A stretch of 64,000 bases of DNA from Bacteroidales bacterium (GTDB taxonomy: Bacteria; Bacteroidota; Bacteroidia; Bacteroidales; WCHB1-69), in NCBI GenBank assembly GCA_016285085.1, contig JAEEQA010000002.1:21390-85389 (forward strand). Direction: 5' to 3'. Both the position numbers and the translations under genes were made by a program. Below the pieces are notes generated by a model that worked only from the letters and a program-made list of their open reading frames with translations, had not been told where the DNA came from and ran no database searches. This document shows positions 7,093-62,873 of the stretch, piece by piece. Each line of letters opens with the position of its first letter. Position 1 is the first letter of the stretch.

Positions 7093-7129
7093 ATTTTTAT
7101 ATATACTATTATTAAATTATTGGTTGGGT

Positions 7130-7159
7130 TGTAGAGACGCAAAATTTTGCGTCTCTACA
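7130..7159. repeat. GTAGAGACGC palindromic element (perfect 30-nt palindrome, AT loop)
   Basis: TGTAGAGACGCAAAATTTTGCGTCTCTACA, intergenic upstream of mutS. Confidence 0.9.
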
Positions 7160-18468: not shown

Positions 18469-18490
18469 AATTTATTTGGTTCTGTTTGTC

Positions 18491-18518
18491 GTGGAGACGC
18501 GATGAATCGCGTCTCCAC
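18491..18518. repeat. palindromic element variant (GTGGAGACGC), likely also a terminator hairpin
   Basis: GTGGAGACGCGATGAATCGCGTCTCCAC, a 13-bp stem between the radical SAM gene and rfbC. Confidence 0.85.
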
Positions 18519-19299: not shown

Positions 19300-19300
19300 A

Positions 19301-19335
19301 GGTTATAGGTTATAGGGGATAGGGGATAGTAATTA
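19301..19335 (+). repeat. heptad array GGTTATA GGTTATA GGGGATA GGGGATA GTAATTA
   Basis: Begins 1 nt from the start codon (19299) of the minus-strand radical SAM gene. Confidence 0.85.
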
Positions 19336-19464
19336 GATTTTCAAACGAAGCCGCCTCTTGTTTATTGTTTGTTTTTTCAATCTTTTCAACCTTCTGCATT
19401 ATACCTTTTACCTTACATTTTCTTTGATTGAACGAACGATCGTGCTAATGCTGAGAGCACGGTT

Positions 19465-20602: not shown

Positions 20603-20622
20603 GGAATAGGGGATAGAAAGTA
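20581..20622 (+). repeat. heptad array GAGATTA GGGATTA GTAATTA GGGAATA GGGGATA GAAAGTA
   Basis: Overlaps the last codons and the stop codon (20602) of thpR. Confidence 0.8.
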
Positions 20623-20635
20623 AAAGCTATACCAT

Positions 20636-39963: not shown

Positions 39964-40754
39964 AACAGTACCTTGACCTATTGCAAACCATTCTGAATGA
40001 GGGACATGAAAAATCCGACCGCACCGGCACCGGCACGGTCAGCATTTTCGGGTATCAGATGCGGTTCAATCTGCAGGAGGGCTTCCCCCTGCTGACAACC
40101 AAAAAGTTGCACCTCCGTTCCATCATTTACGAACTGCTGTGGTTCCTGCAGGGCAACACTAATGTCGCCTATCTGCACGACCACAAGGTGACGATTTGGG
40201 ACGAGTGGGCCGACCCGAACGGCGACCTCGGTCCCATTTACGGCAAGCAGTGGCGTTCGTGGGCCTGTGCCGACCACCGCACCGTTGACCAAATCTCGCA
40301 GGTACTCAATGATATACAGAAAAATCCCGACTCGCGCCGGCTGATTGTGAGTGCGTGGAATGTGGGCGAAATTGAGAAAATGGCACTGCCCCCCTGCCAT
40401 GTGATGTTCCAGTTCTACGTTTGCAACGGCGAGTTGTCGTGCCAGCTGTACCAGCGCAGTGCCGACGTGTTCCTCGGCGTACCGTTCAACATCGCTTCCT
40501 ACGCCCTCCTCACCCTGATGATGGCGCAGGTGACCGGCCTCAAGCCCGGCAGTTTCATCCATACCCTCGGCGACGCCCACCTCTATTCCAACCATCTGGA
40601 ACAGGCACGGTTGCAACTCACCCGCGAGCCCCGGAAGCTGCCCGTGATGAAGCTGAACCCCGCCGTGAAATCGTTGTTTGATTTCCAATACGAGGATTTC
40701 ACCCTTGAAGGGTACGACCCGCACCCGCACATCAAAGCCGACGTTTCGGTGTAG
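39960..40754 (+). CDS. thyA: thymidylate synthase
   Basis: 264 aa. [31 protein letters not shown], catalytic-region motifs. Confidence 0.97.
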
Positions 40755-40816
40755 GGTACAGGGTACAGGGGATAGGGTACAGGGGACAGGGGACAGGGGA
40801 CAGGGGACAGGGGACA
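40754..40816 (+). repeat. heptad array GGGTACA x2, GGGGATA, GGGTACA, GGGGACA x5 (G-quadruplex-type motif)
   Basis: 9 units starting on the last base of the thyA stop codon. Nine consecutive G3-4 runs with 3-4-nt spacers. Confidence 0.9.
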
Positions 40817-40819
40817 GTT

Positions 40820-42209: not shown

Positions 42210-43025
42210 TTATTTTGTATTTTGAAACACAGAAGGGTTCCACTTTTGTAAGTTTTGCAGAACCTCGTATGTAGGGCTACTGCTGTAAGGCAGGCATCTT
42301 TTTTCACCGTTAAGAGTCATATAAACGTTGCGTGTGGTATAGTTTACAATATGGCTGTACATTATGACGCATCGTCGGTTGATGCGCAGATAGGATTTAG
42401 GAGGCAGTAATTTTTCAATTTCAGAAAAAGTCCTTTCCTGAATATAGGTATCGGAATCAGCAAAGATAGTAACTTCTCTTTTTCTGATTTCAAAAAAGGA
42501 AATTTCATCCAGTGAAATCTCATGGCTCGTATTGGAGCCGAGAAAAACAATTTTGCCTGTAAGACTGGATATATATTTTTCTCCTTTTTGCACCGCTTTT
42601 GCGCTTAACAAGTATAATTTATATAAGGTAGAAAACATTAGAAAACACCCGTTGCGCAATGTAACGGAAACATAGGTATCATACACGTACCAATAGTAGT
42701 TTGAGGTGGTTCCATACGGAAGCACGCAGTTGCGGATATGGTCGATACAAAAAAGTTCCTCAATGCAAGCTGTTACAAGTGCAAGCGCCACGCATATCAT
42801 GCAATATAATAATTTTTTGTTCTTTAGCCATAATTTGGGAATCAGGACAAAAATATTGGTATAAACAATCCCTATGATAAGCAGGTAACAGATTAATACG
42901 TAAGTAATGCTCATTTTAGGTCGCAGGAGGGCGGTATGGAGAAACCTTCCTAAAACAATTATCCAAAAGAACACATGGGCAATAATCTCCACAACGGTTT
43001 TGGCATTTATTTTTTTGTTCATCAT
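42210..43025 (-). CDS. membrane-anchored LytTR-domain regulator
   Basis: 271 aa. About 4 N-terminal TM helices, then LytTR (ISLDEISFFEIRKREVTIFADSDTYIQERTFSEIEKLLPPKSYLRINRRCVIMYSHI). AT-rich. Confidence 0.75.
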   Translation of the reverse strand: MMNKKINAKTVVEIIAHVFFWIIVLGRFLHTALLRPKMSITYVLICYLLIIGIVYTNIFVLIPKLWLKNKKLLYCMICVALALVTACIEELFCIDHIRNCVLPYGTTSNYYWYVYDTYVSVTLRNGCFLMFSTLYKLYLLSAKAVQKGEKYISSLTGKIVFLGSNTSHEISLDEISFFEIRKREVTIFADSDTYIQERTFSEIEKLLPPKSYLRINRRCVIMYSHIVNYTTRNVYMTLNGEKRCLPYSSSPTYEVLQNLQKWNPSVFQNTK

Positions 43026-43848: not shown

Positions 43849-43890
43849 TACTGAAATGCAAGGATGCGATTATACGATGAAACTATAACG

Positions 43891-43918
43891 TAGAAAGTAA
43901 TAGGTAAAAAGTAAAAGG
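43891..43918 (+). repeat. heptad array TAGAAAG TAATAGG TAAAAAG TAAAAGG
   Basis: Between the 43327 gene and leader copy A. Same word family as 14731. Confidence 0.7.
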
Positions 43919-43944
43919 TTTCCAACGCACGCCCCCTCTTTCAG

Positions 43945-44109
43945 ACCTCCTACTTGTTACCTATCACCTTTTATGAACCCTCCGATTAGCCGCCATACTA
44001 CGACAAAACTACCTAAAGAAAACCTTCACATCTTCACACCTTCACTTCTTAGTTTCTTAACTCCTTAACTCTAAACTTTAGACTTTAAACTTTTAAATCC
44101 AAAATAATT
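43945..44109 (+). repeat. G-depleted leader module, copy A (ends at ATG 44110)
   Basis: Hand-aligned with copies B and C. ACCNNNN heptads, core CCGATTAGCCGCCATACTA, then CTT-type heptads. Confidence 0.85.
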
Positions 44110-45708
44110 ATGAAAACCACCCAAACCCTTCTCAAATCCTTTCTCCTTCTGTCGCTGCTGATAGTGACGGGAGGAACGATGTGTGGCCAGCATATTGTGT
44201 ATGAGCCGTACGATTTTCGGCAGGTGAACGCCGATGGCGACACCCTCTATTACCGTATAACTTCCTATACAGAACCTTACACCGTGGCGGTGACCCGCTG
44301 CCACGACTCCACTTACCATCTGTTACCCCAGCCCAGTTATGAATGGCAGATTGGGCAGCCAGGATTCGCTTATCCAGTCTATGACTATGATTCGCTCATC
44401 AACATACCTCCGACCGTTACGTACGACGATGTGATATACACAGTGACAGCCATTGACATTGAGGCTTTTTATAACCAAAAAGGAATAAGTGTAGTGAATT
44501 TGCCATCCACCATTGAAACCATTGATTCGGCTGCCTTTTATCTGTCATCATTGACAGAAATTTCGTTGCCAGAAAATTTGCGATCGATAAAATATGAAGC
44601 ATTTCTTCGCACACCAATTAGTGAAATACACCTACCCCAATCCTTATCGCATATTGGAGCTTTAGCTTTTGCTCACACTAATATTTCAGAGGTTGACTTA
44701 CCCAGTGGCGTTGATACATTACGGTATCTGGCTTTTTGCGGATGTCCTATTGAAAAAATCACCTTGCCGGAAGGTCTTGTCGTTATAGAAGAGAGGGCTA
44801 TTACATGCGAGTACTTGGACACGCTCATTTTCCCGAGCAGTTTGAAATGTGTTGGCTCTTTATTTAGAAGCATATCCTCGAATTTTGATAATTTCACGGA
44901 ATGGAATCAATTAAAATATGTGAAATTCACAAATGGGCCAGAACCCTTGTCGCTTGGCAAGCGTTGTTTGGCCGGATGCCCTCATTTGGAGACATTGATA
45001 CTCTCTGACAATATAGTAAGTTTTGGTGAGGAATGCTTTTCTTACAGCACTATTGACACGATGGTGATACCTCAAAATGTCAGAATGATACCAGGCCATT
45101 GTTTTTTTCATTGTGATTCATTACGGAGTGTTATTTTCCCTGAACACCTTGACACTATATCCCATTATGCATTTTCTTTTTGTCCATTATTGGAATCCAT
45201 TGTTCTCCCTAATGATTTAAAATACATAGGAGGATATGCATTTAATGCCTATAATGGAGATTCTATCGGAGTGAAAGAGATTCGTGTTCTTAGTGAGGAA
45301 CCGCCTGTATTACATTGTAATAATTATGTATTTCCTCGGATTTGGCCCATAATGTGCACAATCCCTTGTGGAACTTTATCCGATTATCAGAATAGCATTT
45401 GGGGTGCTGTTTATACAAATTTGTCTTTCTACGAAGATTGCGATGCTGTGGAGGAGCACACTGATTCTGAAATTAGAATTTACCCCAATCCCGTAAGCGA
45501 TGTGATTTATATAGAGCTGTTAGAACAAAAGGAGAATACAAACAAACAGGCGTCTGTCTATACTATTACAGGCCAAATGATTGATTCATATATTTTTAAT
45601 TCTCATGATTTTGAAATCAACTTGCAGGATTATCCAAGCAGTGTTTATATTCTTAAGGTGACCGACAACTCGGGAATATTTTTACAGGAAAAAATCATAA
45701 AACAATAA
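44110..45708 (+). CDS. BspA-type leucine-rich-repeat surface protein with T9SS C-terminal sorting domain
   Basis: 532 aa with a signal peptide. Repeated ~22-aa LRR units (IxxxAFxxCxxLxxIxLPxxL). C-terminus IRIYPNPVSDVIYIEL...VYTITGQMI...SVYILKVTDNSGIFLQEKIIKQ. Confidence 0.85.
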   Translation: MKTTQTLLKSFLLLSLLIVTGGTMCGQHIVYEPYDFRQVNADGDTLYYRITSYTEPYTVAVTRCHDSTYHLLPQPSYEWQIGQPGFAYPVYDYDSLINIPPTVTYDDVIYTVTAIDIEAFYNQKGISVVNLPSTIETIDSAAFYLSSLTEISLPENLRSIKYEAFLRTPISEIHLPQSLSHIGALAFAHTNISEVDLPSGVDTLRYLAFCGCPIEKITLPEGLVVIEERAITCEYLDTLIFPSSLKCVGSLFRSISSNFDNFTEWNQLKYVKFTNGPEPLSLGKRCLAGCPHLETLILSDNIVSFGEECFSYSTIDTMVIPQNVRMIPGHCFFHCDSLRSVIFPEHLDTISHYAFSFCPLLESIVLPNDLKYIGGYAFNAYNGDSIGVKEIRVLSEEPPVLHCNNYVFPRIWPIMCTIPCGTLSDYQNSIWGAVYTNLSFYEDCDAVEEHTDSEIRIYPNPVSDVIYIELLEQKENTNKQASVYTITGQMIDSYIFNSHDFEINLQDYPSSVYILKVTDNSGIFLQEKIIKQ

Positions 45709-45721
45709 GGCAGAAAATCAT

Positions 45722-45729
45722 TACTTTTG
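45722..45729 (+). promoter_or_regulatory. -7 box TACTTTTG upstream of leader copy B
   Basis: TAnnTTTGCCGCC, 223 nt before ATG 45952. This implies the leader module is transcribed as a 5' UTR. Confidence 0.45.
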
Positions 45730-45782
45730 CCGCCTGAAACTCCAACTGCACCGAATGCACGCGGCGCGTTCCTGCAACCCAA

Positions 45783-45951
45783 ACTGAAAATTGTAAACCT
45801 CCTACCTGTCACCTATCACCTTTTACTACCCCACCGATAGCCGCCATACTATGACGGCACTACCAAAAGAGAACCTTCACTCCTTCACTTCTTAGTTTCT
45901 TCACTTCTTAACTCTAAACTATAGACTTTTAACTTTAAAACCCAAATAGTT
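45783..45951 (+). repeat. G-depleted leader module, copy B (ends at ATG 45952)
   Basis: Starts ACTGAAAATTGTAAACCTCCTACCTGTCACCTATCACC. Preceded by a -7 box at 45722. Confidence 0.85.
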
Positions 45952-46896
45952 ATGAAAAAAATTGCAATAACTTTTTTCTTTTATGTAGTCATTCTATCCA
46001 GCTACCCGCAAATATCAATTTGTAATAACCAAATATGGGCGTCTGATACAATTTCAAATAATTATATCGACGGACATATCTATTACTCGGCAGAAACACG
46101 GACTTTAACCCTTGATAACGCTCAAATAGATGTCCCATGGCCCAACGACGACCATATTACGGATGTATTGTTTCTGTCTGAATGTCAACTAGAGATACAC
46201 CTTATAGGTGAGAATACTATTTCAGGTATATTTCCAATTAATTTATTTCGTTCAAACTGTGTGATATCTGGTTCTGGGAAATTGATACTGAGGACATTGA
46301 ATTTCGTTCATTGTTGTAGCGTTAATTTTCAAGACACACTTACCACACTCTCTATCCAAAACAATGCAGAAGTAGAGTGTTATGCCTATAATGAATGGAA
46401 TACAGGTGCCGGATTCAGAGGACATGGATACGATTGGAATGATACGACTATAGCTCTTTCAGAACGAAGTACTGAATATGCAGGAAACGTATTCGTTAAT
46501 TCAGCTACGCTACGGATAAATGCTGACATGTGCATATATCGGTTGGCAGATTTACGACTGGACGGTTGTCATTTTTCCAGTCCGGAGAATGCTTATTTTG
46601 ATTCTGATCTTCACACAGTGGTCAGTTCGGAGCAAATGGTAACGGAGTATCTGGAAGTGTTGCCTGGGTCAGTGGGCATCCCAAATGTTCAGTTAGAGAC
46701 AGAACGTGCATGGGGAGCATTGGGGTCAATCCATATAGAAAATGTGTCGTATGGACAATCGGTAAAAATATACAATATAACGGGTCAGGAGATTTATCGA
46801 ACGAAGGCACATTCATCCAAAATCAAATTGGAAACCTCTCCTGGTATATATATTGTTCGATTCCAAAATCATAGTCAAAAAGTTGTAGTTTATTAA
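45952..46896 (+). CDS. secreted protein with T9SS C-terminal sorting domain
   Basis: 314 aa with a signal peptide. C-terminus IHIENVSYGQSVKIYNITGQEIY...SPGIYIVRFQNHSQKVVVY. Confidence 0.75.
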   Translation: MKKIAITFFFYVVILSSYPQISICNNQIWASDTISNNYIDGHIYYSAETRTLTLDNAQIDVPWPNDDHITDVLFLSECQLEIHLIGENTISGIFPINLFRSNCVISGSGKLILRTLNFVHCCSVNFQDTLTTLSIQNNAEVECYAYNEWNTGAGFRGHGYDWNDTTIALSERSTEYAGNVFVNSATLRINADMCIYRLADLRLDGCHFSSPENAYFDSDLHTVVSSEQMVTEYLEVLPGSVGIPNVQLETERAWGALGSIHIENVSYGQSVKIYNITGQEIYRTKAHSSKIKLETSPGIYIVRFQNHSQKVVVY

Positions 46897-46910
46897 AGGC
46901 CAGTACAATT

Positions 46911-47315
46911 ATGAGAAAAAGTATAGTTTTTATTGTCGTATTTTTGCTAATCACATTGATTTCCAAGGCACAGAGCGAATCTTATTACATTTATGATAAG
47001 GTGAGAATTTTAACAGAAAACGCTTCAATATATCATTTACAATTACAGCCCGGCCTCTCTGAAAGACAACAGTATATCATAGACAGTTTAGTTCGGGTTA
47101 ATTCATCTCAAGTCATTGTGACAGGGAATAATCATTATATCATTCAAGTTGACGACCACAATGCACAAAGAATAAAAAGAGAGATACTTTCATGCTCTAA
47201 TAGCATACTTTATTTCTCAAAAGAGTACCTATTTGCGCCGCACGAAGAACCAGTAGAAGGTAGGAAGTATAAAGTAGGAGGTCAATTCAACAGTTCAACA
47301 ATTCAACAACCATGA
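46911..47315 (+). CDS. small secreted protein, hypothetical (resembles the N-terminal pro-region of the nearby S8 peptidase)
   Basis: 134 aa. Signal peptide MRKSIVFIVVFLLITLISKAQ. Its 3' end overlaps the next gene by 4 nt. Confidence 0.55.
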   Translation: MRKSIVFIVVFLLITLISKAQSESYYIYDKVRILTENASIYHLQLQPGLSERQQYIIDSLVRVNSSQVIVTGNNHYIIQVDDHNAQRIKREILSCSNSILYFSKEYLFAPHEEPVEGRKYKVGGQFNSSTIQQP

Positions 47316-47719
47316 AAACAACCAACATTTTCCAAACCCTTCTGCTCGCGCTGTTGCTGGCGGCGGGAGAATTAGTATTAACAAACTGCGTTAAGCAGAA
47401 AAACTGTAAAATAACAAAAAAAACATTTTGTGTTGAAGGAATGCTTTTTTATATCTCTAAAGAAAAAGCATATATAGATGTCACTGATACAACACCTCAT
47501 GTAATTTTCGTTGAAGGAGATACAATTACTATGTACAACACCTGTAGGTGGACAATAGAGCCATCCGACATTCCCACAAAATATCAGGTTGACGGAATAG
47601 AAGTACGAGCCTCATTGCTGAACAAAGGAGTTGTGTTGGATTGGGTATCAGCAGGAGATAGCAGTAATGAGGCTGTTCTTGCCCCATACAGAGTGAAATG
47701 TATTGAATCAATAAAATAA
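47312..47719 (+). CDS. small lipoprotein, hypothetical
   Basis: 135 aa. MKTTNIFQTLLLALLLAAGELVLTNC. The N-terminus is related to those of the 44110 and 52162 genes. Confidence 0.55.
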   Translation: MKTTNIFQTLLLALLLAAGELVLTNCVKQKNCKITKKTFCVEGMLFYISKEKAYIDVTDTTPHVIFVEGDTITMYNTCRWTIEPSDIPTKYQVDGIEVRASLLNKGVVLDWVSAGDSSNEAVLAPYRVKCIESIK

Positions 47720-47729
47720 AATTAAAGCA

Positions 47730-50700
47730 ATGAAAAAATTTATATTTTTCACGTGTCTGATTTTGGTTATTCATTTGATTTATGGACAGAGTGGAGGCAA
47801 TTTTTATTATGCCGAGGGTCAACAGCATTTCTTTTCAACGGATTCTACATCTGTTAATATCCTTGTCAGAAATATGCAACATTATGACACTATTGCAAAA
47901 GCTATATCTGCTTTTTATTCTGATTCTTCTGAATATGCGGTATACTATGACAATGAAGACGATAACATTATTGTAAGTAGCAAATCTATTGTGCTGCGAA
48001 ATATCGATTCCTTGCTACAACAACTTGCTCCAAATAATAACGACATTGCTTTTATCAGCTATGCCAAACAAATTGGTGGTAGTCATTTTTGGTTAAGGAA
48101 TGAAGTGTATGTGAAATATAGGGATTCTCTTCAAGCTGTAGCAGATTTATCAAATGTTTTATCCTTATACACAGTTGAGCAGGTTGTATATGAAGGTGAT
48201 TATGAATACAGACTGATCATCAACGACGAAAATCAACTATTGAACCTTGCTAATTCGTTATATGATACGTCTAAGGTAATATATTCTACCCCTGACTTTT
48301 ACGGCGAAATAGAACTTAACACCTCCGATACGTATTTTGAAAGACAATGGGGGTTATTGAATATTGGCCAAGAAGGCGGACAATCAGGATATGACATTAA
48401 TGCCGAATTAGCGTGGGATTTTTTAAGTGACCTTTTTGGAAATTCCACATTCCCTACAATCAAGGTGGCAGTCATTGACGATGGTGTTGAAAATCATGAA
48501 GATATGTATGACTCAAATGGGCAAAGTAAGGTCTTACAAGGATGTACTCCAGGATGGACGGACCACGGTGCACCAGTCCCTAAGAGCAAACATGGTGAAT
48601 GTTGCGCTGGTATAATAGCTGCCTCTCACAATTCCATTGGTATAGCCGGAGTTGCAGAAAACACTCAAATAATCCCGATAAGAATCTTCAAAAGAACAAA
48701 TTTAAAAGCATTCAGTTACGCTCGCATTGCAAAAGGTATTACTAAGGCGTGGAAAGAACTTGGTGCAGATATTCTTAGTAACTCTTGGTCTGAAAAAGAT
48801 ATTACTGTATCAAATGACAAATTAAACAATGCTATAACAAAAGCATTGTCAAGTGGTCGTAATAACAAAGGATGCGTTGTTGTTTTTTCTTCAGGGAACA
48901 ATAATACTTTCGTTAACTATCCTGCAAATCAAAGTGGGGTTATTGCAGTTGGAGGTATTGAACGATGTGGCTGGAGAGCAGGGAACCATCTTACTGCATA
49001 TATGTGTGACCATTGGAATGGTTCTTCCTATGGCAGTTGCTTTGGCAGTGCTTTGAGTGTGGTTGCACCTGCAACTAATATTTGGGCTACAGATAGACAG
49101 GGTAATGGGTATGGCTACGATGAATATAGTAAATATATCACATTTAATGGAACATCCGCTGCTTGCCCTCACGTTTCGGGGGTTGCTGCGCTAATGCTAA
49201 GCGTTAATCCCTCTTTAACACAGAATCAAATACACTCTATTATCAATAGTACAGCCCAAAAGATCACTCATTACGAATTCGTCATCAGCAATGGTCACAA
49301 TGATGGCACATGGAACAATGACGTTGGATACGGTCTTGTTGATGCACACAAGGCTGTCTGTGAAGCTAGGTTGTTTGGACATTCCTTTGCCATCCAAGGT
49401 GCAACAACAGTGAACACCTGTTCTAATTATACTTATTCTTTAATTGGGAATTTGCCACCTGAATTCAATATCGTTTGGGAAGTGAATCCCCAAATGATTA
49501 TCATTGAAGGTCAAGGAACCACTCAGGTATTAGTTAAACCCGTATATCCAGCAACAGGAAACACTGTAGTTGCCCATATTTGTCATGGTGGGGAAATAAT
49601 TAGGACTATTGACAATTTAGGATACATTGTTTCTTATGGTACAAACTATTCTATGGCGATTTCGTCAGATAGCACATTGACATCCAATATTATTTGGGGA
49701 GACAAAAGACAATTGGCCTATACTCTTTCCATTGATTCATTGGCTACTCTTACCATTACAGATACTCTGCTTTGCGTTTCTGGTTCCCGCATCATCGTGC
49801 GTCCGGGCGGGAAGCTCATCGTGAACGGCGGCACGCTCACCAATGCGTGCGATGGCGAGATGTGGGAGGGCATCTTCGTGGAAGGCAACCGAGACCTGCG
49901 GCAGCTGGCAACAAGGCAGGGCAGCGTCATCCTTACCAATGCCACCATCGAAAACGCCCGCAACGCCATCTCCACACGGGGCTTTGAAGAAAGCACCTGG
50001 TGGTACAAGACGGGCGGCATCGTTCAGGCCACCAACACGCTGTTCCGCAACAACCGCCGCAGTGTTGAGTTCCTCGACTACGAGAACCACAAGTCAAGCG
50101 GAGGCATCGCCAGCAACGCCAGCCACTTTGACCGTTGCACCTTCACGGTGGACGACGACAACCTGTTCGCTGAAAACGACGCTACCTTCGGCAGCCATGT
50201 GACGATGTGGAAAGTCCGCGGCGTGAAGTTCAACGGCTGCACCTTCCGCAACGAGACGGTTGAGCATGTGGGGCTGACACGGGGCAGTGCCATCACTGCG
50301 GAGGAGGCGGGGTTCTTTGCCCAGCGAGTGTGCCCGCGCGTGTTGCCCCAAGACCCGTGTATGTGCCTTCCGTTGGGCAGCGACACGGTGACGCGCTGCA
50401 GTTTCGAAGGGTTCCACAAAGCGGTGAATGCCACCAACACCTTCGGGAACTACGACATCACCCTCGACAACTGCGACTTCGCCCACAACCACGCGGGTGC
50501 AACGCTGTCTGCAGCGGACAACGCAAGAGTGAGCTTCTGCGACTTCGACCTGTCGGACACGCTCTCCTACTGCGGGATAGAACTCGAAAACAGCACGGGC
50601 TACACGGTGGAGGAAAACTTTTTCCACAGACAGTACAACACCAATGCCTACAAAGTGACCGGAATCTATGTGGGAAACAGCGGCACGTCGGAGAATGTGA

Positions 50701-51995
50701 TCCGCAAGAACAGCTTCAGCAACGTCAATTGGGGAATCGCAGCCACAGGGACAAATGCCCTCAATTCAAGGACAAGGATTCCCGGCCTTCAATTTGAATG
50801 CAATAGTTTTGCTGGTGGCAAGACCGACATTTCTGTGAACAGTGGCACCGTCCGAGGGACACAAGGTTCCGCTTCTGCAGGAGCTGACAACGTGTTCACC
50901 GGCTTGTGGTCAAGCCAGAGCATTGTGCTGTCCGCCGCCAACAACATAACCTATTATTACAGCAATGGAACAAATCATATTCCGAACAATTCCAGCACAG
51001 GGGTGACACCAGTGGGTTCCGCTACGGCCAACGGCTGCGCCTCAAGCCTGTGCGGCATGCAGGTGAACCCGAAGGGCACCGGAACAGCCCTGGCGCAATA
51101 CCGTGCGCTGGCGGAAGAATATGCGGATCTGGCAGAGACGTGGTGCACCGCGTCTCTACAGCCAACCGACACGATGATGCCCGACAATCCGCAGGATGCG
51201 GAAACCGCCACCCTGCAATCGCGGCTGTCGGACCTGTCGGCGGCGATGGGCGACCTTGCCCGCACCGAAATCCGCGCCATCCTGTCCGACACCGTGGTGG
51301 ATATGGCGCTGCTGAAGGAATGGTACCGCGCCATTGTAGAGGCGTGGTGCACCGCGCCTCTACAGGACACCATACAAACCGACATCCCTGTGGCGGCCTA
51401 CCAGCTGGCGGAGGTGTACAGCCACGAGGGGGATTACGCCGCGGCCAACGCCGTGCTGTCCTCCCTCCCTGAACGGTTCAACCCGGACGAGGCCTCGCGG
51501 AACGAATACGGCAACTACCTCGCCCTCCAGCGGCTGCGGGAGAATGTGTCGGGCAACTGGTACCGCCAGACGGACACGGAAATCGCCGACCTGCAACGGG
51601 TGGCGGAATACGACAACGGCCGCGCCGCCCGCATGGCGAAGGAAATCCTCTGTTTCTTCCACCACATCTGTTATGAGGACGAACCGATTCTGCCGGAATT
51701 GTCCGATGGTGCAATCGGGGAACGCAACGCCCGTAGAGACGGGGCGCGCCCCGTCTCTACGACAACCGGCAATCTCACCCTCCACCCCAACCCCGCGCAC
51801 ACCACCCTCACGGTGGAATCCGACAGCCCCGTCCGCGAAATCACCATCTACGACCTGACGGGAAAAACGATGATGACAGTTGGAAATTGTCCGTCGCCCG
51901 CAACCGTAAATGTTGTATCTTTGCCGCGTGGCATCTACCTGCTCCGCGCCGTGACGGAAGAGGGGGCGCAGACAGCACGGTTCGTAAAGAACTGA
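47730..51995 (+). CDS. S8 (subtilisin-family) serine peptidase with parallel beta-helix region and T9SS C-terminal sorting domain
   Basis: 1421 aa. Catalytic motifs VAVIDDGV (Asp), HGECCAGIIAA (His), GTSAACPHVSGVAALM (Ser). Residues ~690-1050 have beta-helix-like repeats (NCxF/NNxA). C-terminus LTLHPNPAHTTLTVES...IYDLTGKTM...GIYLLRAVTEEGAQTARFVKN. Confidence 0.9.
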   Translation: MKKFIFFTCLILVIHLIYGQSGGNFYYAEGQQHFFSTDSTSVNILVRNMQHYDTIAKAISAFYSDSSEYAVYYDNEDDNIIVSSKSIVLRNIDSLLQQLAPNNNDIAFISYAKQIGGSHFWLRNEVYVKYRDSLQAVADLSNVLSLYTVEQVVYEGDYEYRLIINDENQLLNLANSLYDTSKVIYSTPDFYGEIELNTSDTYFERQWGLLNIGQEGGQSGYDINAELAWDFLSDLFGNSTFPTIKVAVIDDGVENHEDMYDSNGQSKVLQGCTPGWTDHGAPVPKSKHGECCAGIIAASHNSIGIAGVAENTQIIPIRIFKRTNLKAFSYARIAKGITKAWKELGADILSNSWSEKDITVSNDKLNNAITKALSSGRNNKGCVVVFSSGNNNTFVNYPANQSGVIAVGGIERCGWRAGNHLTAYMCDHWNGSSYGSCFGSALSVVAPATNIWATDRQGNGYGYDEYSKYITFNGTSAACPHVSGVAALMLSVNPSLTQNQIHSIINSTAQKITHYEFVISNGHNDGTWNNDVGYGLVDAHKAVCEARLFGHSFAIQGATTVNTCSNYTYSLIGNLPPEFNIVWEVNPQMIIIEGQGTTQVLVKPVYPATGNTVVAHICHGGEIIRTIDNLGYIVSYGTNYSMAISSDSTLTSNIIWGDKRQLAYTLSIDSLATLTITDTLLCVSGSRIIVRPGGKLIVNGGTLTNACDGEMWEGIFVEGNRDLRQLATRQGSVILTNATIENARNAISTRGFEESTWWYKTGGIVQATNTLFRNNRRSVEFLDYENHKSSGGIASNASHFDRCTFTVDDDNLFAENDATFGSHVTMWKVRGVKFNGCTFRNETVEHVGLTRGSAITAEEAGFFAQRVCPRVLPQDPCMCLPLGSDTVTRCSFEGFHKAVNATNTFGNYDITLDNCDFAHNHAGATLSAADNARVSFCDFDLSDTLSYCGIELENSTGYTVEENFFHRQYNTNAYKVTGIYVGNSGTSENVIRKNSFSNVNWGIAATGTNALNSRTRIPGLQFECNSFAGGKTDISVNSGTVRGTQGSASAGADNVFTGLWSSQSIVLSAANNITYYYSNGTNHIPNNSSTGVTPVGSATANGCASSLCGMQVNPKGTGTALAQYRALAEEYADLAETWCTASLQPTDTMMPDNPQDAETATLQSRLSDLSAAMGDLARTEIRAILSDTVVDMALLKEWYRAIVEAWCTAPLQDTIQTDIPVAAYQLAEVYSHEGDYAAANAVLSSLPERFNPDEASRNEYGNYLALQRLRENVSGNWYRQTDTEIADLQRVAEYDNGRAARMAKEILCFFHHICYEDEPILPELSDGAIGERNARRDGARPVSTTTGNLTLHPNPAHTTLTVESDSPVREITIYDLTGKTMMTVGNCPSPATVNVVSLPRGIYLLRAVTEEGAQTARFVKN
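51134..51157. repeat. palindromic element inside the S8 peptidase CDS
   Basis: AGAGACGTGGTGCACCGCGTCTCT, translated AETWCTASLQ. Confidence 0.8.
51335..51364. repeat. palindromic element variant inside the S8 peptidase CDS
   Basis: TGTAGAGGCGTGGTGCACCGCGCCTCTACA, translated VEAWCTAPLQ. Confidence 0.85.
51732..51761. repeat. palindromic element inside the S8 peptidase CDS (perfect 30-nt palindrome, GC loop)
   Basis: CGTAGAGACGGGGCGCGCCCCGTCTCTACG, translated RRDGARPVST. Confidence 0.9.
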
Positions 51996-52161
51996 AAATT
52001 GAAAACCTCCTACCTGTCACCTATCACCTTTTACGAACCTGCCGATTAGCCGCCATACTATGACGGCTCTACCAAATTAGAACCGTACCCCCCTTCACTT
52101 CTTAGTTTCTTAACTCCTTAACTCTAAACTTTAGACTTTTCACTTTACCCCCCAAATAGTT
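51991..52161 (+). repeat. G-depleted leader module, copy C (ends at ATG 52162)
   Basis: Starts ACTGAAAATTGAAAACCTCCTACCTGTCACCTATCACC. The TGA inside ACTGAAA is the stop codon of the S8 peptidase. Confidence 0.85.
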
Positions 52162-53340
52162 ATGAAAACACCCCGAACCTTTTTCCGAGCATTTCTCCTT
52201 CTGACGCTGCTGGTGGCGGGAGGGAACATCGCGGTGGCGCAAACAGACAGTTGTGCCGTGAACGTGATCCACACCTATATGAATGGGCGGCTTATCCCGT
52301 GGGACAGCGTGAAAATCAAGGTTTGTGAGCCCCCTTGTGAGAGGCCCTACCATTACCACACTTTTATGCTCTATTGGCCCGACACGTTGCTGACCAATTG
52401 TACAACAGGCATAGAGGAGTACGTCTCGGCACAGGAGACAGAGTTGTCACAAGTCTTTCCAAACCCCTGTGCTGGAACGAGCCAAGTGAAGCTGACCTTA
52501 CGGAATTCAGGAATAGTTTCTGTGAGTGTGATGGATTTGCAAGGACGGCTTTGTTGCCGGAAAACGCTGCAACTTTCGTCTGGCGAGCACCTGTTATCGC
52601 TGACGCTGCCCCAAAACGGGTTCTACTTTGTGCAGGCCGAAAGCCCGCAGGGCAGCGAAGTGTGCAAGGTGCTCTGTACGGAGGGTGAAGGCTCTGATTT
52701 CGACATCCGTCTGACATCCACCTCTTTCCAAACAATGGAAAGGATTGAAAAAGCAAGCAAAGGGGGCGAGGGATTATTCAATATGACGGACAAGATGCTA
52801 ATCACCGCGTACATTACATATACAGGGGAAGTGAGAACTTGGCAATGGAGTATAAATTACGATTTGGAGTTGGATGGGGAAGTGACTAGTGAGTGGATGT
52901 CAAATATTGGATCCCTAAATATTCATTATACTGAAACTGACAGTTGTGATAACTTCACTCTTTCTGACAGAAATTTCAACGTGATTATTGCGAGTAGTAT
53001 TTGTTTGCCAACAATGGAATATCCTGTGGGTTATCGTGTTACATTCTATGATTCAACTTTTTATTCAGAGCCGACCTCCTTAGCAGCATATACAAGTTCC
53101 ACTTGGTATTTTAATGGGTGGTACAAATATCGGTATTACCCCGAAGATCTTGGAGGATGTATTTGCATCGGAGATATAAATGGGGAGATGCCACCTGAAC
53201 ATATTGATTACTATGGACAACTATCACCTTATGATTATTGCATACGACACTTGGACAAATTAACTTGCAATGAATTTAAACTTTATAAATTCACAGTATA
53301 TGGGAATGATGATGTGGAAGTTTTTGTTAGTAACGAATAA
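52162..53340 (+). CDS. secreted protein with an internal T9SS-CTD-like domain, hypothetical
   Basis: 392 aa. Signal peptide MKTPRTFFRAFLLLTLLVAGGNIAVAQ. Residues ~94-175 (LSQVFPNPCAGTSQVKLTL...GFYFVQAESPQGSEVCKVL) look like a Por_Secre_tail but are followed by ~220 more residues. Paralog of the gene at 63292. Confidence 0.65.
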   Translation: MKTPRTFFRAFLLLTLLVAGGNIAVAQTDSCAVNVIHTYMNGRLIPWDSVKIKVCEPPCERPYHYHTFMLYWPDTLLTNCTTGIEEYVSAQETELSQVFPNPCAGTSQVKLTLRNSGIVSVSVMDLQGRLCCRKTLQLSSGEHLLSLTLPQNGFYFVQAESPQGSEVCKVLCTEGEGSDFDIRLTSTSFQTMERIEKASKGGEGLFNMTDKMLITAYITYTGEVRTWQWSINYDLELDGEVTSEWMSNIGSLNIHYTETDSCDNFTLSDRNFNVIIASSICLPTMEYPVGYRVTFYDSTFYSEPTSLAAYTSSTWYFNGWYKYRYYPEDLGGCICIGDINGEMPPEHIDYYGQLSPYDYCIRHLDKLTCNEFKLYKFTVYGNDDVEVFVSNE

Positions 53341-53350
53341 ATTGAAAAAT

Positions 53351-53755
53351 ATGAAAGCAGCAATAAAAATATTGTTTATAGTCTGTGGTTTTATCTTTTT
53401 GTTCGTTTTCCACCCTTGTTTCGGACAAACACAGGACAAAGAAAGCATCTATGACAGACAAGGAAATAAAATATATTTTGACAAGGTAGAGGATGTCTTT
53501 CATATCGGATTTGCAGAAGGAACGGAGGCTAATACAAGAAATGAGGTACTAGCAGATCTTTCAAATATTGCTAACTACACTATGTTTCCCGACAGTTCGT
53601 ATCGTCTTATTATAAAACAAGGCTGTTCTGCTTTTTTCAAAGAAAAAGCATTAAAGAACAATGTTGTGACCTATTGTACCACCTTACAATACCGACGATT
53701 AGACGCACAACCGTGCGTCTCTACATACATTTTCCTCTTAACTCTTGACTCTTGA
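53351..53755 (+). CDS. small secreted protein, hypothetical
   Basis: Start at MKAAIKILFIVCGFIFLF (ATG 53351 inside the track ORF 53270). The C-terminal 20 codons run through a palindromic repeat and into the CTCTTRA array. Confidence 0.5.
   Translation: MKAAIKILFIVCGFIFLFVFHPCFGQTQDKESIYDRQGNKIYFDKVEDVFHIGFAEGTEANTRNEVLADLSNIANYTMFPDSSYRLIIKQGCSAFFKEKALKNNVVTYCTTLQYRRLDAQPCVSTYIFLLTLDS
53701..53724. repeat. palindromic element, left arm partly degraded
   Basis: AGACGCACAACCGTGCGTCTCTAC, in the last codons of the 53351 CDS (DAQPCVSTY). Confidence 0.7.
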
Positions 53756-53832
53756 CTCTTGACTCTTGACTCTTGACTCTTGACTCTTAACTCTTAACTC
53801 TTAACTCTTAACTCTTAACTCTTAACTTCTAA
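53735..53832 (+). repeat. tandem heptamer array CTCTTAA x1, CTCTTGA x6, CTCTTAA x6, CTTCTAA x1
   Basis: Counted by hand. The stop of the plus-strand gene (53755) and the stop of lspA (53829-53831, minus strand) both lie inside it. Confidence 0.9.
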
Positions 53833-54407
53833 CTCCCCGCCTCTTCCTTCTTATCCGAAAAATCCTTTAAGAAGAACAGCAGGCCGATGAGTCCCACGGT
53901 GACACAGCTGTCGGCGAAGTTGAAAATGGCAGGGAAGAAATACTCGCCGCCGAAGACCGGGAACCAGTCGGGCAGCAGGAACAGCGGGAAGTAGAACATA
54001 TCGACCACGCTTCCGTACAAAAACGGCGCGTAGCCGAAAATCACGCCGTAAAACAGGGAGTCAACGATATTGCCGATCGCGCCGGCCAGCACCATCGACG
54101 AAAGGATAACCGTGCCCGTGCGCAACTTCCCCAATTTAATCAGTTTGAACACATAGTAGGTCAGGAACCCGACCACGCCGATGCGGAAGAGCGACAGCAG
54201 CAGTTTGCCGATATTCTGACCAAAACTCACGCCGAAGGCAATCCCTTCGTTTTCGACAAAATGAAGAAGGAACCAGTGCCCGATGACGGGAATGGTTTCT
54301 CCGGGGGTCATGTTCGTTCTGACCAAAATCTTGATAATCTGGTCAATGACAACCAACACAACCATAACGATGATGGCCGTGAGGGTTAATTTCTTGCTCT
54401 TTTCCAC
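53829..54407 (-). CDS. lspA: lipoprotein signal peptidase (signal peptidase II)
   Basis: 192 aa. FVENEGIAFG, GAIGNIVDS, IFNFADS motifs. 4 TM helices. Confidence 0.9.
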   Translation of the reverse strand: MEKSKKLTLTAIIVMVVLVVIDQIIKILVRTNMTPGETIPVIGHWFLLHFVENEGIAFGVSFGQNIGKLLLSLFRIGVVGFLTYYVFKLIKLGKLRTGTVILSSMVLAGAIGNIVDSLFYGVIFGYAPFLYGSVVDMFYFPLFLLPDWFPVFGGEYFFPAIFNFADSCVTVGLIGLLFFLKDFSDKKEEAGS

Positions 54408-56652: not shown

Positions 56653-56660
56653 CAAAAGTA
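56653..56660 (-). promoter_or_regulatory. -7 box TACTTTTG (DUF4296 gene, near-leaderless)
   Basis: TAnnTTTGCCGCC, only 5 nt before the GTG start at 56647. Confidence 0.45.
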
Positions 56661-56666
56661 CGAATA

Positions 56667-56701
56667 AATTGAAAACTGAAAATTGAAAACTGAAAGTTTG
56701 A
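56667..56701 (+). repeat. heptad array AAATTGA AAACTGA AAATTGA AAACTGA AAGTTTG
   Basis: Upstream of the minus-strand DUF4296 gene. The same words ACTGAAAATTGAAAAC open leader copies B and C. Confidence 0.75.
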
Positions 56702-56742
56702 GATGATCTGGTAGTCGGTCTGGGTGTTTTTTTTACGTTTTT

Positions 56743-61200: not shown

Positions 61201-62313
61201 CTGCTGCAGACGTGGGGCATGGCGCATGGCCTCGACCGTAACGACTTTGACCAGATCATCTTGAATTACAAGAAGAAATACAACGTAACGCAGAAAATCG
61301 GGTTCACGCCTGAGAACATGCGGGAGATTGCGTTCGCCTACAAGCAGTTCCTCACCGACAACGGTATCGCCTTCGAGAGTGACCCGTTCAAGCAGTTGAA
61401 GAAGGCCATCCTGTGCGTGTTTGAGTCGTGGAACTCGCCGCGTGCCAAGGTCTATCGCAGCCAGATGCACATTGCGGAAGAGTGGGGCACGGCAGCCACC
61501 ATCCAGAAGATGGTGCTGGGCAACATCCACCGCGAGTCCGGTTCCGGCGTGGTGTTCACTCGCGATGTGAAAGAGAACCGCGCCAACATCCGCCTCACCG
61601 GCGACTTCTCGTTCCTCAGCCAGGGCGAGGATATCGTGGGCGGCTTGGTCAACACGCTGCCTATCAGCGAGGCACAGCGGGAGACGGGCTATCAGAATTG
61701 TCCCTTCTCGTTGCAATCACAATACCCCGAGATTTACAACAAACTGTTGGAGGTGGCGAAGAACATGATCGAGAAGGATGGTTTCAGCCATCAGGAAATC
61801 GAGTTCACCTTTGAAACGGCGAAGGGCGAGGATCTGTACATCCTGCAAACCCGCAACATGGTGGTTTCCAACCAGACATCAGTGGAAACCTTCGGCGAAA
61901 AACCGGAAAACATGGACAAGGTTGGAACGGGTATCGGCATCGGCAACGGCGTGCTGAACGGCATCATCGTGTTCGACATGGACGACATCCGCAAGGTGCG
62001 CAACGGCGACGACCCGACGCAGCAGATTGTGCTGGTGCGTCCCGACACCGTGCCGGACGATATCGAGCTGATCATCGAGTGCGACGGCTTGCTGACGGCC
62101 CGTGGCGGCGCCACTTCCCACGCAGCCGTGACGGCGGCGGCACTCGGAAAAACCTGCGTAGTGAACTGCGAGGCCCTGCACGTCCACGAGAAGGAAAAGA
62201 GCTGCACCATCAACGGCGTTCCCTTCAAGGTGTTCGACCCTGTCGCCATCGACGGCCGCAACGGCATCATCTACAAGGGAAATTACTTGGTCGTGCTGGA
62301 CGACTTCAACTAA
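58210..62313 (+). CDS. orphan dikinase-like protein: ~800-aa unknown N-terminal region + PPDK-type ATP-grasp and phosphohistidine swivel domains, no PEP/pyruvate TIM-barrel
   Basis: 1367 aa. Its ATG overlaps the GAPDH stop (ATGA). The C-terminal third has PPDK N-terminal signatures: LSVRSGSAISMPGAMNTFLNVG, GTAATIQKMVLGN, GSGVVFTRD, SQGEDIVGG, EIEFTFE..LYILQTR, and the swivel-His motif TARGGATSHAAVTAAALGKTCV. The protein ends ~55 aa later. Confidence 0.8.
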   Translation: MTNEINSKALEVNLKNTNVEYVIPDEHQWFIKQSENQWGLHKRVVEFFTEYDHPMSNRTEVVKALPNVTISDFWLYKELPLEDQKRIVDIVLAIYDKLLSEKLPHTKAKDLVTYFLRFIDSNDGVLNACGDGVKRCIQILDKYLDDNAFSYYCHIGQFKVKLAKAANNPDTADITFKMMQRLVKSHIQYWRETTQIMQWYESHKAKMSRDYSQELETLGDKMFDEFVGLADNAKSWQELCDNAFTFGDIIKAFQSKIYVFAHTSEQFSYIFYLLHLPGTVDNHPQLLVELNKVIKHVSNEKDEDLCIASIDNLFEQFADFRDSHLNLILDSIFELGKEIIHTDNHRLIRHLEKKIIDFGFVTPGVKYVTNDWELKVNPCHIKNVRVWLELVELAPETMQRLLSALIINLRIGGIFVFDTDFFQKDITKLLNSEISPVYKQTKQLARIFPVYFNEIGAEGQLRDVSTKVDELSHRNDKLIHFLRKQIHTEGNNSHIQITLDVISFWYDRKKERLHEILPPNVYELVEDHGIWVDGVHDCLHKFCEFANVPLEELIEMKKDKVEQIGRKINHPDEIDVQRVCLIIELYQLLKEKYIFDSTNIINIMRRNSFVETEDVNTLEELLKGKDTVATLEHIFSIMRKLNEIIFDPKPSTGWENVVYKRHIAFGIPSMYGYYRENKFDALGLIFRLERIVTVLVHDLIENINTSIFTLKAIKEICSTIQLLYEGLKLDGVSDQGFESNLKMLQYSLNSGCFTTEQYINLFQFMGSSLNEIISNYFIRPYEPLLKIIIPQLMEENITDKVELKKILAQKSEVFYRELLSSSFLIQQVDNFIGEILNNLRTQANLLSPEEAQNLMTYDQELAISPLYQETPAVDNKVFLGAKAYYLKRLVLGGYPVPPGFVVTTEVFRRMNAILKVAPINRELDRMIKRQLTAIEKITGQEFGNPKNPLLLSVRSGSAISMPGAMNTFLNVGMNDEITEQLSKQDNYAWTSWDCYRRLLQTWGMAHGLDRNDFDQIILNYKKKYNVTQKIGFTPENMREIAFAYKQFLTDNGIAFESDPFKQLKKAILCVFESWNSPRAKVYRSQMHIAEEWGTAATIQKMVLGNIHRESGSGVVFTRDVKENRANIRLTGDFSFLSQGEDIVGGLVNTLPISEAQRETGYQNCPFSLQSQYPEIYNKLLEVAKNMIEKDGFSHQEIEFTFETAKGEDLYILQTRNMVVSNQTSVETFGEKPENMDKVGTGIGIGNGVLNGIIVFDMDDIRKVRNGDDPTQQIVLVRPDTVPDDIELIIECDGLLTARGGATSHAAVTAAALGKTCVVNCEALHVHEKEKSCTINGVPFKVFDPVAIDGRNGIIYKGNYLVVLDDFN

Positions 62314-62352
62314 GAACTAAGAGTTAAGAACCAAGAACTAAGAGTTAAGAGT
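62311..62352 (+). repeat. heptad array TAAGAAC TAAGAGT TAAGAAC CAAGAAC TAAGAGT TAAGAGT
   Basis: Starts exactly on the TAA stop of the 1367-aa gene. TTAAGAG is the reverse complement of the CTCTTAA unit at 53735. Confidence 0.85.
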
Positions 62353-62362
62353 GCTTGCATAA

Positions 62363-62818
62363 ATGACCGATAAACAGAAACAATACGAGCTGTTGTACAA
62401 GCAGCTGCTGGCTTTGGCGGAAGGCGAAAGCGATGAGGTGGCGTTGATGGCCAATGCGGCTGCGTTGCTGCACGATGCCTTCCATTTCTGGTGGACGGGG
62501 TTTTACCGTGTGGTGGGCGAGGAGCTGGTATTGGGGCCGTTCCAGGGACCGGTTGCATGTACCCGTATTCCGTTCGGCCGCGGGGTGTGCGGCACGGCGT
62601 GGAAGATGCGGCAAACCATCATCGTGCCCGATGTGGAGCAATTCCCGGGGCACATTGCCTGCAGCAGCGCCTCCCGCAGTGAAATCGTGGTGCCATTGTT
62701 CCGCGACGACCGTGTGGTCGCTGTTTTAGACATCGACAGCGAGCATCTCGCCACGTTCGACGAAACCGACCGGGTTGGTTTGGAAAAACTGGCGGGAATT
62801 TTAGGGGATAGTAAATAG
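62363..62818 (+). CDS. GAF-domain protein (free methionine-R-sulfoxide reductase / YebR-like)
   Basis: 151 aa. WTGFYRVVGEELVLGPFQGPVACTRIPFGRGVCGTAW...SEIVVPL. Confidence 0.8.
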   Translation: MTDKQKQYELLYKQLLALAEGESDEVALMANAAALLHDAFHFWWTGFYRVVGEELVLGPFQGPVACTRIPFGRGVCGTAWKMRQTIIVPDVEQFPGHIACSSASRSEIVVPLFRDDRVVAVLDIDSEHLATFDETDRVGLEKLAGILGDSK

Positions 62819-62873
62819 GGTATAGGGGTTAGGGGATAGTAATTAGTAGTTAGTAGTTAGTAATTAGGGGGTA
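62804..62873 (+). repeat. heptad array, 10 units (GGGGATA GTAAATA GGGTATA GGGGTTA GGGGATA GTAATTA GTAGTTA GTAGTTA GTAATTA GGGGGTA)
   Basis: Overlaps the last codons and the TAG stop (62816-62818) of the GAF gene. Confidence 0.85.

Follow-up and report, generated by a model that had tools for sequence, protein, structure and literature searches.

A G-poor mosaic spacer that abuts start codons and recombines between its copies in uncultured rumen and gut Bacteroidales

Within a 64,000-nucleotide stretch of the genome of an uncultured Bacteroidales bacterium from rumen-type metagenomes (assembly GCA_016285085.1, contig JAEEQA010000002.1, forward-strand positions 21,390 to 85,389; hereafter the window, in whose own coordinates positions are given unless a related locus is named), three copies of a sequence module, which we call A, B and C, lie directly upstream of three surface-protein genes and end on their start codons. 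They are paralogous members of a mosaic family of intergenic spacers or leaders that is specific to a lineage of uncultured rumen and gut Bacteroidales. The description of the module as a duplicated, gene-converting mosaic spacer is well supported. On balance, and with moderate confidence, we favour a reading in which this recombining spacer also serves as a 5' leader that would keep the start region unstructured for initiation independent of Shine-Dalgarno (SD) pairing. Because the family also precedes housekeeping genes in related genomes, this small, recombination-prone leader family is a variant of a known phenomenon and not a new kind of RNA element.

All three copies lie on the plus strand: copy A at 43945-44109, copy B at 45782-45951 and copy C at 51990-52161, with non-repetitive cores at 43966-44024, 45818-45875 and 52026-52084, respectively. 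When they were aligned end to end by MAFFT together with repeat finding, identity, counted from the first ACC heptad up to the ATG, was 87.9% between B and C, which differ by two 1-nt indels, 82.4% between A and B, and 81.2% between A and C; this agrees with the original prediction, made from the sequence alone, which had put B and C at about 85% with two such indels and A as more diverged. A hidden Markov model (HMM) built from copies A to C re-detects them at their predicted places (nhmmer, E 4.7e-47 to 2.2e-59), and a model built from 11 copies scores A, B and C at E 8.7e-54, 5.4e-55 and 2.9e-53. Every copy is followed directly by ATG (at 44110, 45952 and 52162), just as had been claimed. 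The G content is 5.5% in A, 8.3% in B and 9.4% in C, compared with 24.3% for the window, and the value for C bears out an earlier hand count of under 10%. Copy C was also correctly said to begin on the stop codon of the preceding S8 peptidase gene, since the TGA at 51993-51995 falls within AACTGAAAATTG, the start that C has in common with B. At position -3 there is a purine (A in copy A, G in copies B and C) and at -6 an A. The window as a whole holds these three copies and a weak fourth relative, clustered within 10 kb, and an HMM of the core alone detected no core standing by itself, either in the window or in the other loci searched. This confirms copies A to C as real, G-poor leaders, 81-88% identical, that abut start codons.

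The layout of the module, taken from an alignment of 11 copies, runs from optional purine repeats and a unique 25-nt stretch (in what we term type A copies only) through ACCNNNN heptads, the core and G-poor 7/8-mers to CTCTAAACTTTAGACTTTTAACTT and the start codon, the composite being 170-215 nt long. The core, of about 45 nt, reads ACCTTTTACGAACC..CCGAT.AGCCGCCATAnTAnGAC..CTAC, and its segment GCCGCCATAnTAnGAC is present in 14/14 full copies from several genomes, the probe used to find copies being located elsewhere in the module. Tandem Repeats Finder reports arrays of period 7/8 inside the modules, with degenerate units (ACCTNNN, CTTCACT/TTCTTAG and TTAACTC/TAAACTT) in which 7-mers are mixed with 8-mers. 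The lag-7/8 autocorrelation of the modules is 0.39-0.43, against 0.28-0.30 for shuffled sequence, and the lag-7 value (0.39-0.40) was reached by only 3-17 of 2000 shuffles. The 7-nt periodicity of the predicted heptad architecture therefore holds, although the intermixed 8-mers mean that the heptads are not pure.

The right arm of the core, CGGCTCTAC, matches, in 8 of 9 positions, a palindrome, GTAGAGACG..CGTCTCTAC, resembling the repetitive extragenic palindromic (REP) sequences of other bacteria. The family (G)TAGAGACG-N-CGTCTCTAC to which it belongs has 5 hits in the window, where 0.04 are expected. REP-like palindromes were located at 7128-7158, 10663-10693, 18488-18518, 51129-51160, 51733-51760 and 53701-53720, and at 2450-2479 of L026, one of the related loci described below; two of them lie in frame within the S8 peptidase coding sequence (CDS). 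In the fourth relative (53701-53720) and in L026 an intact palindrome sits at the position of the core, and by its sequence the core looks like a decayed copy of this genome's REP-like palindrome.

Folding predictions place the modules among the least structured sequences of the window. The minimum free energy (MFE) of the sense RNA is -4.7 kcal/mol for A, -16.6 for B and -13.2 for C, compared with -48.1 +/- 12.5 for a background of 672 window pieces of 190 nt each, so that the copies fall within the least-structured 0-0.3% of pieces. A structured cis-regulatory RNA (a riboswitch, attenuator or processing site) or a small RNA gene might have been suspected from the conserved length and position upstream of genes, and from a weak core stem, AGCCG/CGGCT in copy C, shortened in copy B to GCCG/CGGC. 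As a conserved fold this stem had to be rejected, being broken without compensation in A and in two of the copies of the related locus L019 (L019a and L019b). The covariation check proposed in the original prediction, run with RNAalifold on 10 copies, gave a consensus of -0.3 kcal/mol with 4 invariant pairs and 0 compensatory ones, while Rfam returned only tRNAs at its gathering threshold and only chance-level matches at E<=10. Together with sense-strand MFEs among the weakest in the window, these results refute a structured RNA as far as computation allows, give no support to a defined RNA motif, and make this explanation extremely improbable; we conclude that the module is no structured RNA. 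Within the final 100 nt ahead of each ATG, the triplets ATG, GTG and TTG do not occur and every frame has stops, which, with the weak folding and lack of conserved structure, supports the earlier suggestion of an unstructured leader. Nothing points to the processing or antitermination role that had also been suggested.

Copies outside the window were sought by scanning JGI metagenomes and a set of genomes, one per species, for the invariant 20-mer CCTTCACTTCTTAGTTTCTT, followed by HMM searches; the loci or contigs from rumen and gut Bacteroidales that resulted are referred to by L-numbers, and the full copies, window and relatives together, number 14 (n=14). All 14 are oriented to a start codon 0-45 nt away, and every one lies behind a co-directional gene whose stop codon is just upstream. 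The near-identical strain represented by L019 has five copies. L015 has two, before dxr (with a TTG start) and before hisS, the latter with an 8-mer array expanded to ~13 units; L004 (from a yak-rumen metagenome-assembled genome, MAG), L013 and L018 have one copy each, before a PNGase-like (discoidin) lipoprotein gene, and L010 has one, before the ortholog of the window gene that starts at 47312. A partial copy lies upstream of an aspartate-carbamoyltransferase (ATCase)-like gene in L016, and L016, L006, L011, L023 and L008 all hold partial, repeat-only relatives. Further copies thus exist in relatives, but the restriction of the module in the original prediction to genes for secreted proteins or cargo of the type IX secretion system (T9SS) is not upheld, because dxr and hisS have full modules in front of them and the ATCase-like gene has a partial one. 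The 20-mer has one exact match per reference MAG. It matches nothing in viral contigs, and a phage origin was rejected on that ground.

Orthologous junctions in progressively more distant relatives suggest which part of the module persists. Between terC and dxr the module is complete in L015, whereas L025 (Dxr 98% identical) has a repeat-only filler with inverted AAGAAAC units, no core and the same last ~45 nt, L026 (Dxr 92%) a 70-nt spacer made up of the REP palindrome or hairpin, and L028 and L030 (Dxr ~80%) an ordinary promoter. At the lipoprotein junction the full module of L004 and L013 is represented in L031 (88%) by its last ~62 nt only, while in L032, L033 and L035 the gene has a short leader behind an ordinary TAnnTTTG promoter; in L032 and L033 its upstream neighbour is also divergent. 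In L006 and L011 the ortholog of gene C (the gene behind copy C) is preceded by a canonical TAAATTTG box and then a G-poor, coreless repeat leader of ~125 nt. The start-proximal repeats are thus the persistent part. The module appears where a gene follows a co-directional neighbour without a nearby canonical promoter. Insertion of a miniature inverted-repeat transposable element was also considered and rejected: the relatives show replacement of filler, without target-site duplication or terminal inverted repeats.

Comparison with L019 and with the other relatives indicates that the copies exchange patches. Gene A (44110-45708, plus strand; a BspA-type leucine-rich repeat protein with a T9SS C-terminal domain, CTD, by Pfam) is 99.4% identical between the window and L019, whereas the module in front of it reaches only 82%, with 16 gap columns in the alignment. 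The changed patch is 96% identical to another L019 copy, which points to gene conversion. Window copy C is 100% identical over the core to the non-orthologous L019c. Between L004 and L013 the module is identical at 167/170 positions (98.2%) without gaps, compared with ~90-94% for the upstream gene, 79.5% for the downstream CDS and 60.8% for third codon positions.

The sharing extends into coding sequence. Likeness between A and C continues for ~65 nt into the signal-peptide codons (44092-44160 versus 52144-52212, 78% identity; ~75 nt had been claimed), and the plus-strand stretches MKTTQTLLKSFLLLSLLIVTGG of gene A (44110-44175) and MKTPRTFFRAFLLLTLLVAGG of gene C (52162-53340, plus strand, beginning at the ATG after copy C; the stretch itself at 52162-52227) are conserved together with the module. 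Downstream of copy B the sequence has fully diverged immediately after ATGAAAA, and the gene there (45952-46896, plus strand, 314 aa) has a signal peptide unrelated to those of A and C. Across genes and strains, signal peptides of the types MKTTQTLLKSF.. and MKTPRTFFRAF.. are each fused to different mature proteins: gene A has a signal peptide identical to that of an unrelated L019 gene at 10680, and gene C matches an L019 gene at 9439 at 100% in alignment columns 251-275 (the ATG and first ~20 nt) while their mature parts differ.

Gene content differs between strains at these same places. In L019 one module stands in place of the window's copy B, 6 kb with four genes including the S8 peptidase, and copy C; further downstream L019 has a tandem array of three paralogous CTD proteins with a module before each. 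In L010 the order is gene X, module, a gene like that at 47312, and S8 peptidase, the window being 3.2 kb longer behind the same leader. The single L019 module in place of B and C, the shared leader and signal-peptide units on different mature proteins and the patchwork copies all favour the earlier suggestion that the module acts as a recombination handle. The original prediction was to count as refuted if the copies were remnants of one recent segmental duplication that took the flanking genes along. The tandem paralog spacers of L019 and the stop-codon context shared by B and C fit such an origin in part, but duplication alone is insufficient, because copies precede unrelated genes in other species. 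We conclude from these comparisons that gene conversion moves patches between copies, and that the copies bound the differences in gene content between strains.

Ordinary window genes have a TAnnTTTG box 20-50 nt upstream and upstream regions with 12-20% G, so that G depletion could be rejected as a general trait of gene upstreams. A tally of G-poor tracts (<=3 G per 50 nt) was uninformative, its threshold being too loose for AT-rich intergenic DNA. A candidate Bacteroidota -7 box, TACTTTTG within TACTTTTGCCGCC, lies at 45722-45729 on the plus strand, 223 nt upstream of ATG B, and is conserved in L019; a minus-strand occurrence of the extended box TACTTTTGCCGCC, at 56653-56660, precedes a DUF4296 gene called on the matching contig. 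The claim that only copy B has such a box proved wrong, as a second candidate, TATCTTTG within TATCTTTGCCGCG, is found at 51916-51923 (plus strand), within the terminal, CTD-encoding part of the S8 peptidase gene and 239 nt upstream of ATG C. No plus-strand TAnnTTTG box was found inside any window copy or close upstream of A; the one match that falls inside a module, at 44004-44011, reads antisense to copy A. A sigma-A promoter inside the module was accordingly rejected, and hexamers in the core resembling extracytoplasmic-function (ECF) or sigma-70 promoters, checked by eye, have unsuitable spacing.

Several further repeat elements lie close to the copies. Copy A extends upstream into purine heptads (GTAGAAA GTAATAG GTAAAAA GTAAAAG, 43889-43920) that pair with its four ACC heptads, giving a long imperfect hairpin (43889-43975, plus strand) with a 21-nt unpaired apical loop, an MFE of -24 kcal/mol and a z of -4.51 (0/200 shuffles equally stable). 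This purine 5' extension is restricted to type A copies, and its layout recurs in L004, L013, the hisS copy of L015 and L010; the hairpin is significant solely in window copy A, and in L004, L015 and L010 it is not significant against shuffles. At 47252-47311 (plus strand) a coreless repeat leader, with purine heptads followed by G-poor repeats of the CAATTCAA type, precedes the ATG at 47312, in a place where the L010 ortholog has a full type A module. The fourth relative (53665-53853, plus strand; E 3.5e-05 to 6.8e-05) lies between convergent genes and consists of ACC-like repeats, a perfect REP-like hairpin (53701-53720; -12.7 kcal/mol, z -4.7) and then an array of (CTCTTGA/CTCTTAA)x14. The 70 nt upstream of B may be homologous to the CTD-coding end before C; this is suggestive only, with a local score of 19 that is equalled by 34/2000 shuffles and 33/659 window pieces.

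More broadly, the intergenic DNA of the window is full of 7/8-nt tandem arrays with many different units on either strand (among them AGGGGAC x9 and CTCTTRA x14), at 19298-19336, 20583-20623, 40753-40817, 43890-43919, 47252-47309, 53735-53835, 56666-56695, 62308-62352 and 62801-62867. The same is true of L015, L025 and L030, and such abundance looks like a lineage-wide trait. A promoter cassette with (CAGTTTT/CAATTTT)n directly upstream of TTTATTCGTAnnTTTGC also recurs, at 56653-56715 on the minus strand and in L030 at 5354-5446, 6678-6743 and 7830-7907, and the extended box TAnnTTTGCCGCC is seen at several promoters. Two small paralogous secreted open reading frames (ORFs), 46911-47315 and 53351-53755, extend into the adjacent repeat arrays before their stops.

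The neighbouring genes show some features of their own. In gene C and its L006 and L011 orthologs the T9SS C-terminal sorting domain (Por_Secre_tail) is internal, at aa 98-169 of 392, and is followed by >200 further residues. The S8 peptidase gene (47730-51995) is compositionally mosaic, with 35-41% GC up to ~49600 and 50-65% GC thereafter. A LytTR-domain gene (42210-43025, minus strand) flanks the variable locus; the matching stretch of L019 (5626-6630) is unalignable and holds a different LytTR gene on the opposite strand. Pfam scans of the locus ORFs identified LytTR, LRR_5, Peptidase_S8, CTD, lspA and CCA/polyA polymerase matches, with no integrase or recombinase among them. Upstream of the distant lipoprotein ortholog of L035 there is a Y1_Tnp transposase gene (154-603; IS200/IS605 type or of the RAYT type, REP-associated tyrosine transposase), which may bear on the REP-like palindromes.

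Taken together, these data suggest the following picture. The module spreads through duplications that include the ends of neighbouring genes and, in arrays of T9SS cargo genes, the signal-peptide codons as well. Homologous recombination and gene conversion between copies reshuffle it continually, and they also bring about gain, loss or swap of the genes between them. Filling the gap behind a co-directional gene, the module would be transcribed as a long 5' untranslated region (UTR) or an intercistronic spacer, from candidate origins at the 45722 box (for B) and the 51916 box (for C), or else as part of an intercistronic transcript. The near-absence of G means that the module cannot be expected to fold and that it holds no ATG, GTG or TTG. 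Bacteroidia start translation without SD pairing, with mRNA structure and upstream adenines tuning initiation (PMC6847099, PMC7797042), and unstructured 5' tails are known as ribosome standby sites (PMC5934652). To such non-SD ribosomes an unfolded module with stops in all frames may offer single-stranded RNA on which to land and start. What matters would be the ~45-60 nt adjoining the start codon, with the core and 5' repeats as replaceable filler. Since it has been inserted between terC and the essential dxr, the module is at the least compatible with downstream expression.

Several observations weigh against this interpretation. Transcription starts, read-through and any translational effect of the module are all things that we infer. 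The main doubt comes from the L004 and L013 modules, whose 98.2% identity, core included, appears to exceed what mere unstructuredness needs and would imply a specific binding partner, a promoter or a very recent exchange. The relative at 53665-53853 has no downstream start codon, and purine-rich repeats (62308-62352) also abut a start codon. Because copies outside the window were found with the module 20-mer, conservation of that block is partly a matter of ascertainment. Finally, G-poverty and unstructuredness could be by-products of slippage-made repeats and not selected.

A wholly neutral account is, in our view, possible but distinctly doubtful: slippage-generated 7/8-nt microsatellites hitchhike with tandem duplication and gene replacement, and lie next to ATGs because they fill the spacer. 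Such arrays do occur everywhere in the intergenic DNA of this genome in all orientations, in L019 the modules are no more than what separates the members of a tandem paralog array, close relatives lack the module at the same junctions, and the conservation of module A falls far below that of its gene, which is 99.4% identical. Neutrality sits poorly, however, with a 98.2% conserved L004/L013 module between genes that are 80-94% identical, with the survival of the start-proximal ~45-62 nt when all else is replaced, with the same composite, core included, before unrelated genes in several species, and with the uniform orientation of full copies to the start codon. A further rival is a sequence-specific regulatory element, with the core or repeats (or both) bound by a lineage-specific RNA- or DNA-binding protein, or the core a non-canonical (alternative sigma) promoter, of a co-regulated gene set (T9SS cargo, dxr, hisS and others). 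The core segment kept in 14/14 full copies, the L004/L013 identity over the whole module, the lack in most copies of a canonical TAnnTTTG box inside or adjoining, the S1, Csp or CsrA-type binders proposed for heptamer repeats by MacGregor (PMC4679880) and the LytTR-domain regulator gene flanking the locus can all be cited for it. We nevertheless consider it unlikely, as close relatives do without the core between terC and dxr and before the lipoprotein gene, the core lacks sigma-A-like hexamers, core-to-start spacing varies by >80 nt (in the hisS copy), and the genes behind the module have no functional coherence. Much the same low probability attaches to the broader proposal that the composite is a portable cis-element read by a lineage-specific factor (an RNA-binding protein, alternative sigma factor or antiterminator), with a regulon of T9SS cargo together with dxr and hisS. 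Sequence-specific recognition of this kind would explain the 98% cross-species conservation, and recombination between copies would then be a route by which genes enter and leave the regulon.

Recombination is also central to the proposal that module and signal peptide form a specialised recombination site for exchanging T9SS cargo genes behind a fixed expression site, akin to integron attC sites or to the Borrelia upstream homology sequence. Modules do bound strain differences, identical leader and signal-peptide units do occur on different mature proteins, and a role in gene rearrangement has been raised for such repeats by MacGregor (PMC4679880). Yet an integrase or recombinase is absent among the scanned locus ORFs, the module has no inverted repeat or attC-like fold, all copies precede intact genes with start codons, silent promoterless cassettes being absent, single-copy housekeeping genes carry the module too, and the patchy mosaics resemble ordinary homologous gene conversion. 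A dedicated cassette-exchange system is, in our view, very unlikely.

The module is of interest as a putative natural SD-independent leader and as a substrate for recombination in the turnover of surface-protein genes. How internal and long-leader starts are made efficient in Bacteroidia is still being worked out, and the module provides a natural, portable, 170-nt, near-G-free test object for an 'unstructured landing pad'. As it sits before both essential and surface-protein genes, it is also a possible expression part for Bacteroidales engineering. By marking where T9SS cargo genes are gained, lost or re-headed, it helps to explain the turnover of surface proteins in rumen Bacteroidales. There is a practical aspect as well: these elements break metagenome assemblies, and they can lengthen ORF calls because neighbouring genes (such as the two small secreted ORFs described above) read into the repeats. 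Independent assemblies end in or near the module or heptad arrays at the start of L002, the start of L001, the end of L019, the end of L006 and the start of L011, and the breaks in other assemblies of the window DNA coincide with module C or with the heptad array beside it.

The module was compared with several known systems. Copies B and C, with MFEs near zero, have no hairpin-forming inverted repeat of the integron attC kind, and Pfam scans of locus ORFs found no adjacent integrase. The module resembles the upstream homology sequences of Borrelia hermsii vmp genes (PMC6011951): like them, it combines 5' non-coding sequence with a signal-peptide block at otherwise different surface genes and acts as a crossover point in gene conversion. 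Unlike the vmp system, which has one expression site and silent promoterless cassettes, every copy of the module precedes a complete ORF with a start codon; modules also stand before housekeeping genes without signal peptides, and programmed switching is not evidenced. Conserved blocks of 5' UTR and signal peptide are known as well from the Mycoplasma vlp/vsp families. With the REP sequences and bacterial interspersed mosaic elements (BIMEs) of enterobacteria, the module shares an extragenic position between co-directional genes, a mosaic of a palindromic unit and variable flanks, and rapid turnover. It differs in that the core of A to C is no longer palindromic (the intact hairpin being found only at 53701-53720 and in L026), in a copy number that appears low (3 (+1) in the 64 kb covered of the source genome, with a single exact 20-mer match in each reference MAG), in its fixed orientation to the start codon and in its tandem-repeat flanks. 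No RAYT (Y1 transposase) was seen among the window ORFs scanned, a scan that did not aim at testing such an association, and Y1_Tnp was found only in L035.

Ribosome standby leaders (PMC5934652, PMC6690012) resemble the module in having an extended single-stranded region upstream of the start, in our case by prediction only. The G depletion of the module removes both folding and spurious starts, and its -3 purine and -6 A fit such a leader. Unlike standby leaders, the module is a conserved, duplicated genomic unit and not a property of a single gene, and its function is predicted. The omega leader of tobacco mosaic virus is likewise G-poor and repeat-rich.

The nearest precedent is found in the heptamer leaders described by MacGregor (unit TAACTGA; PMC4679880), within a wider class of long simple-sequence repeats that includes the cyanobacterial short tandemly repeated repetitive (STRR) heptamers. 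According to that study (MacGregor 2015, PMC4679880), the heptamer direct repeats lie between genes in forward orientation and end at most a few nt from a start codon; they have no predicted RNA structure and contain stop codons in the forward frames; the genes downstream are functionally unrelated and some are essential; in Bacteroidetes, assemblages of mixed heptamers occur in nearly identical intergenic regions next to ORFs that are partly identical; the repeats vary between close relatives, and assemblies break there. Roles in translation and in gene rearrangement were suggested (PMC4679880). The module has the 7-nt tandem period, the forward intergenic position and the proximity to start codons, with the 53665-53853 relative as an exception to the last. 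Its units are not TAACTGA, the closest being AACTGAA/AATTGAA at the 5' edge of B and C, and form a degenerate mixture of 7- and 8-mers. What further sets the module apart from the heptamer leaders is its conserved core of ~45 nt, and that the whole 170-215-nt composite is itself the repeated, cross-species-conserved unit.

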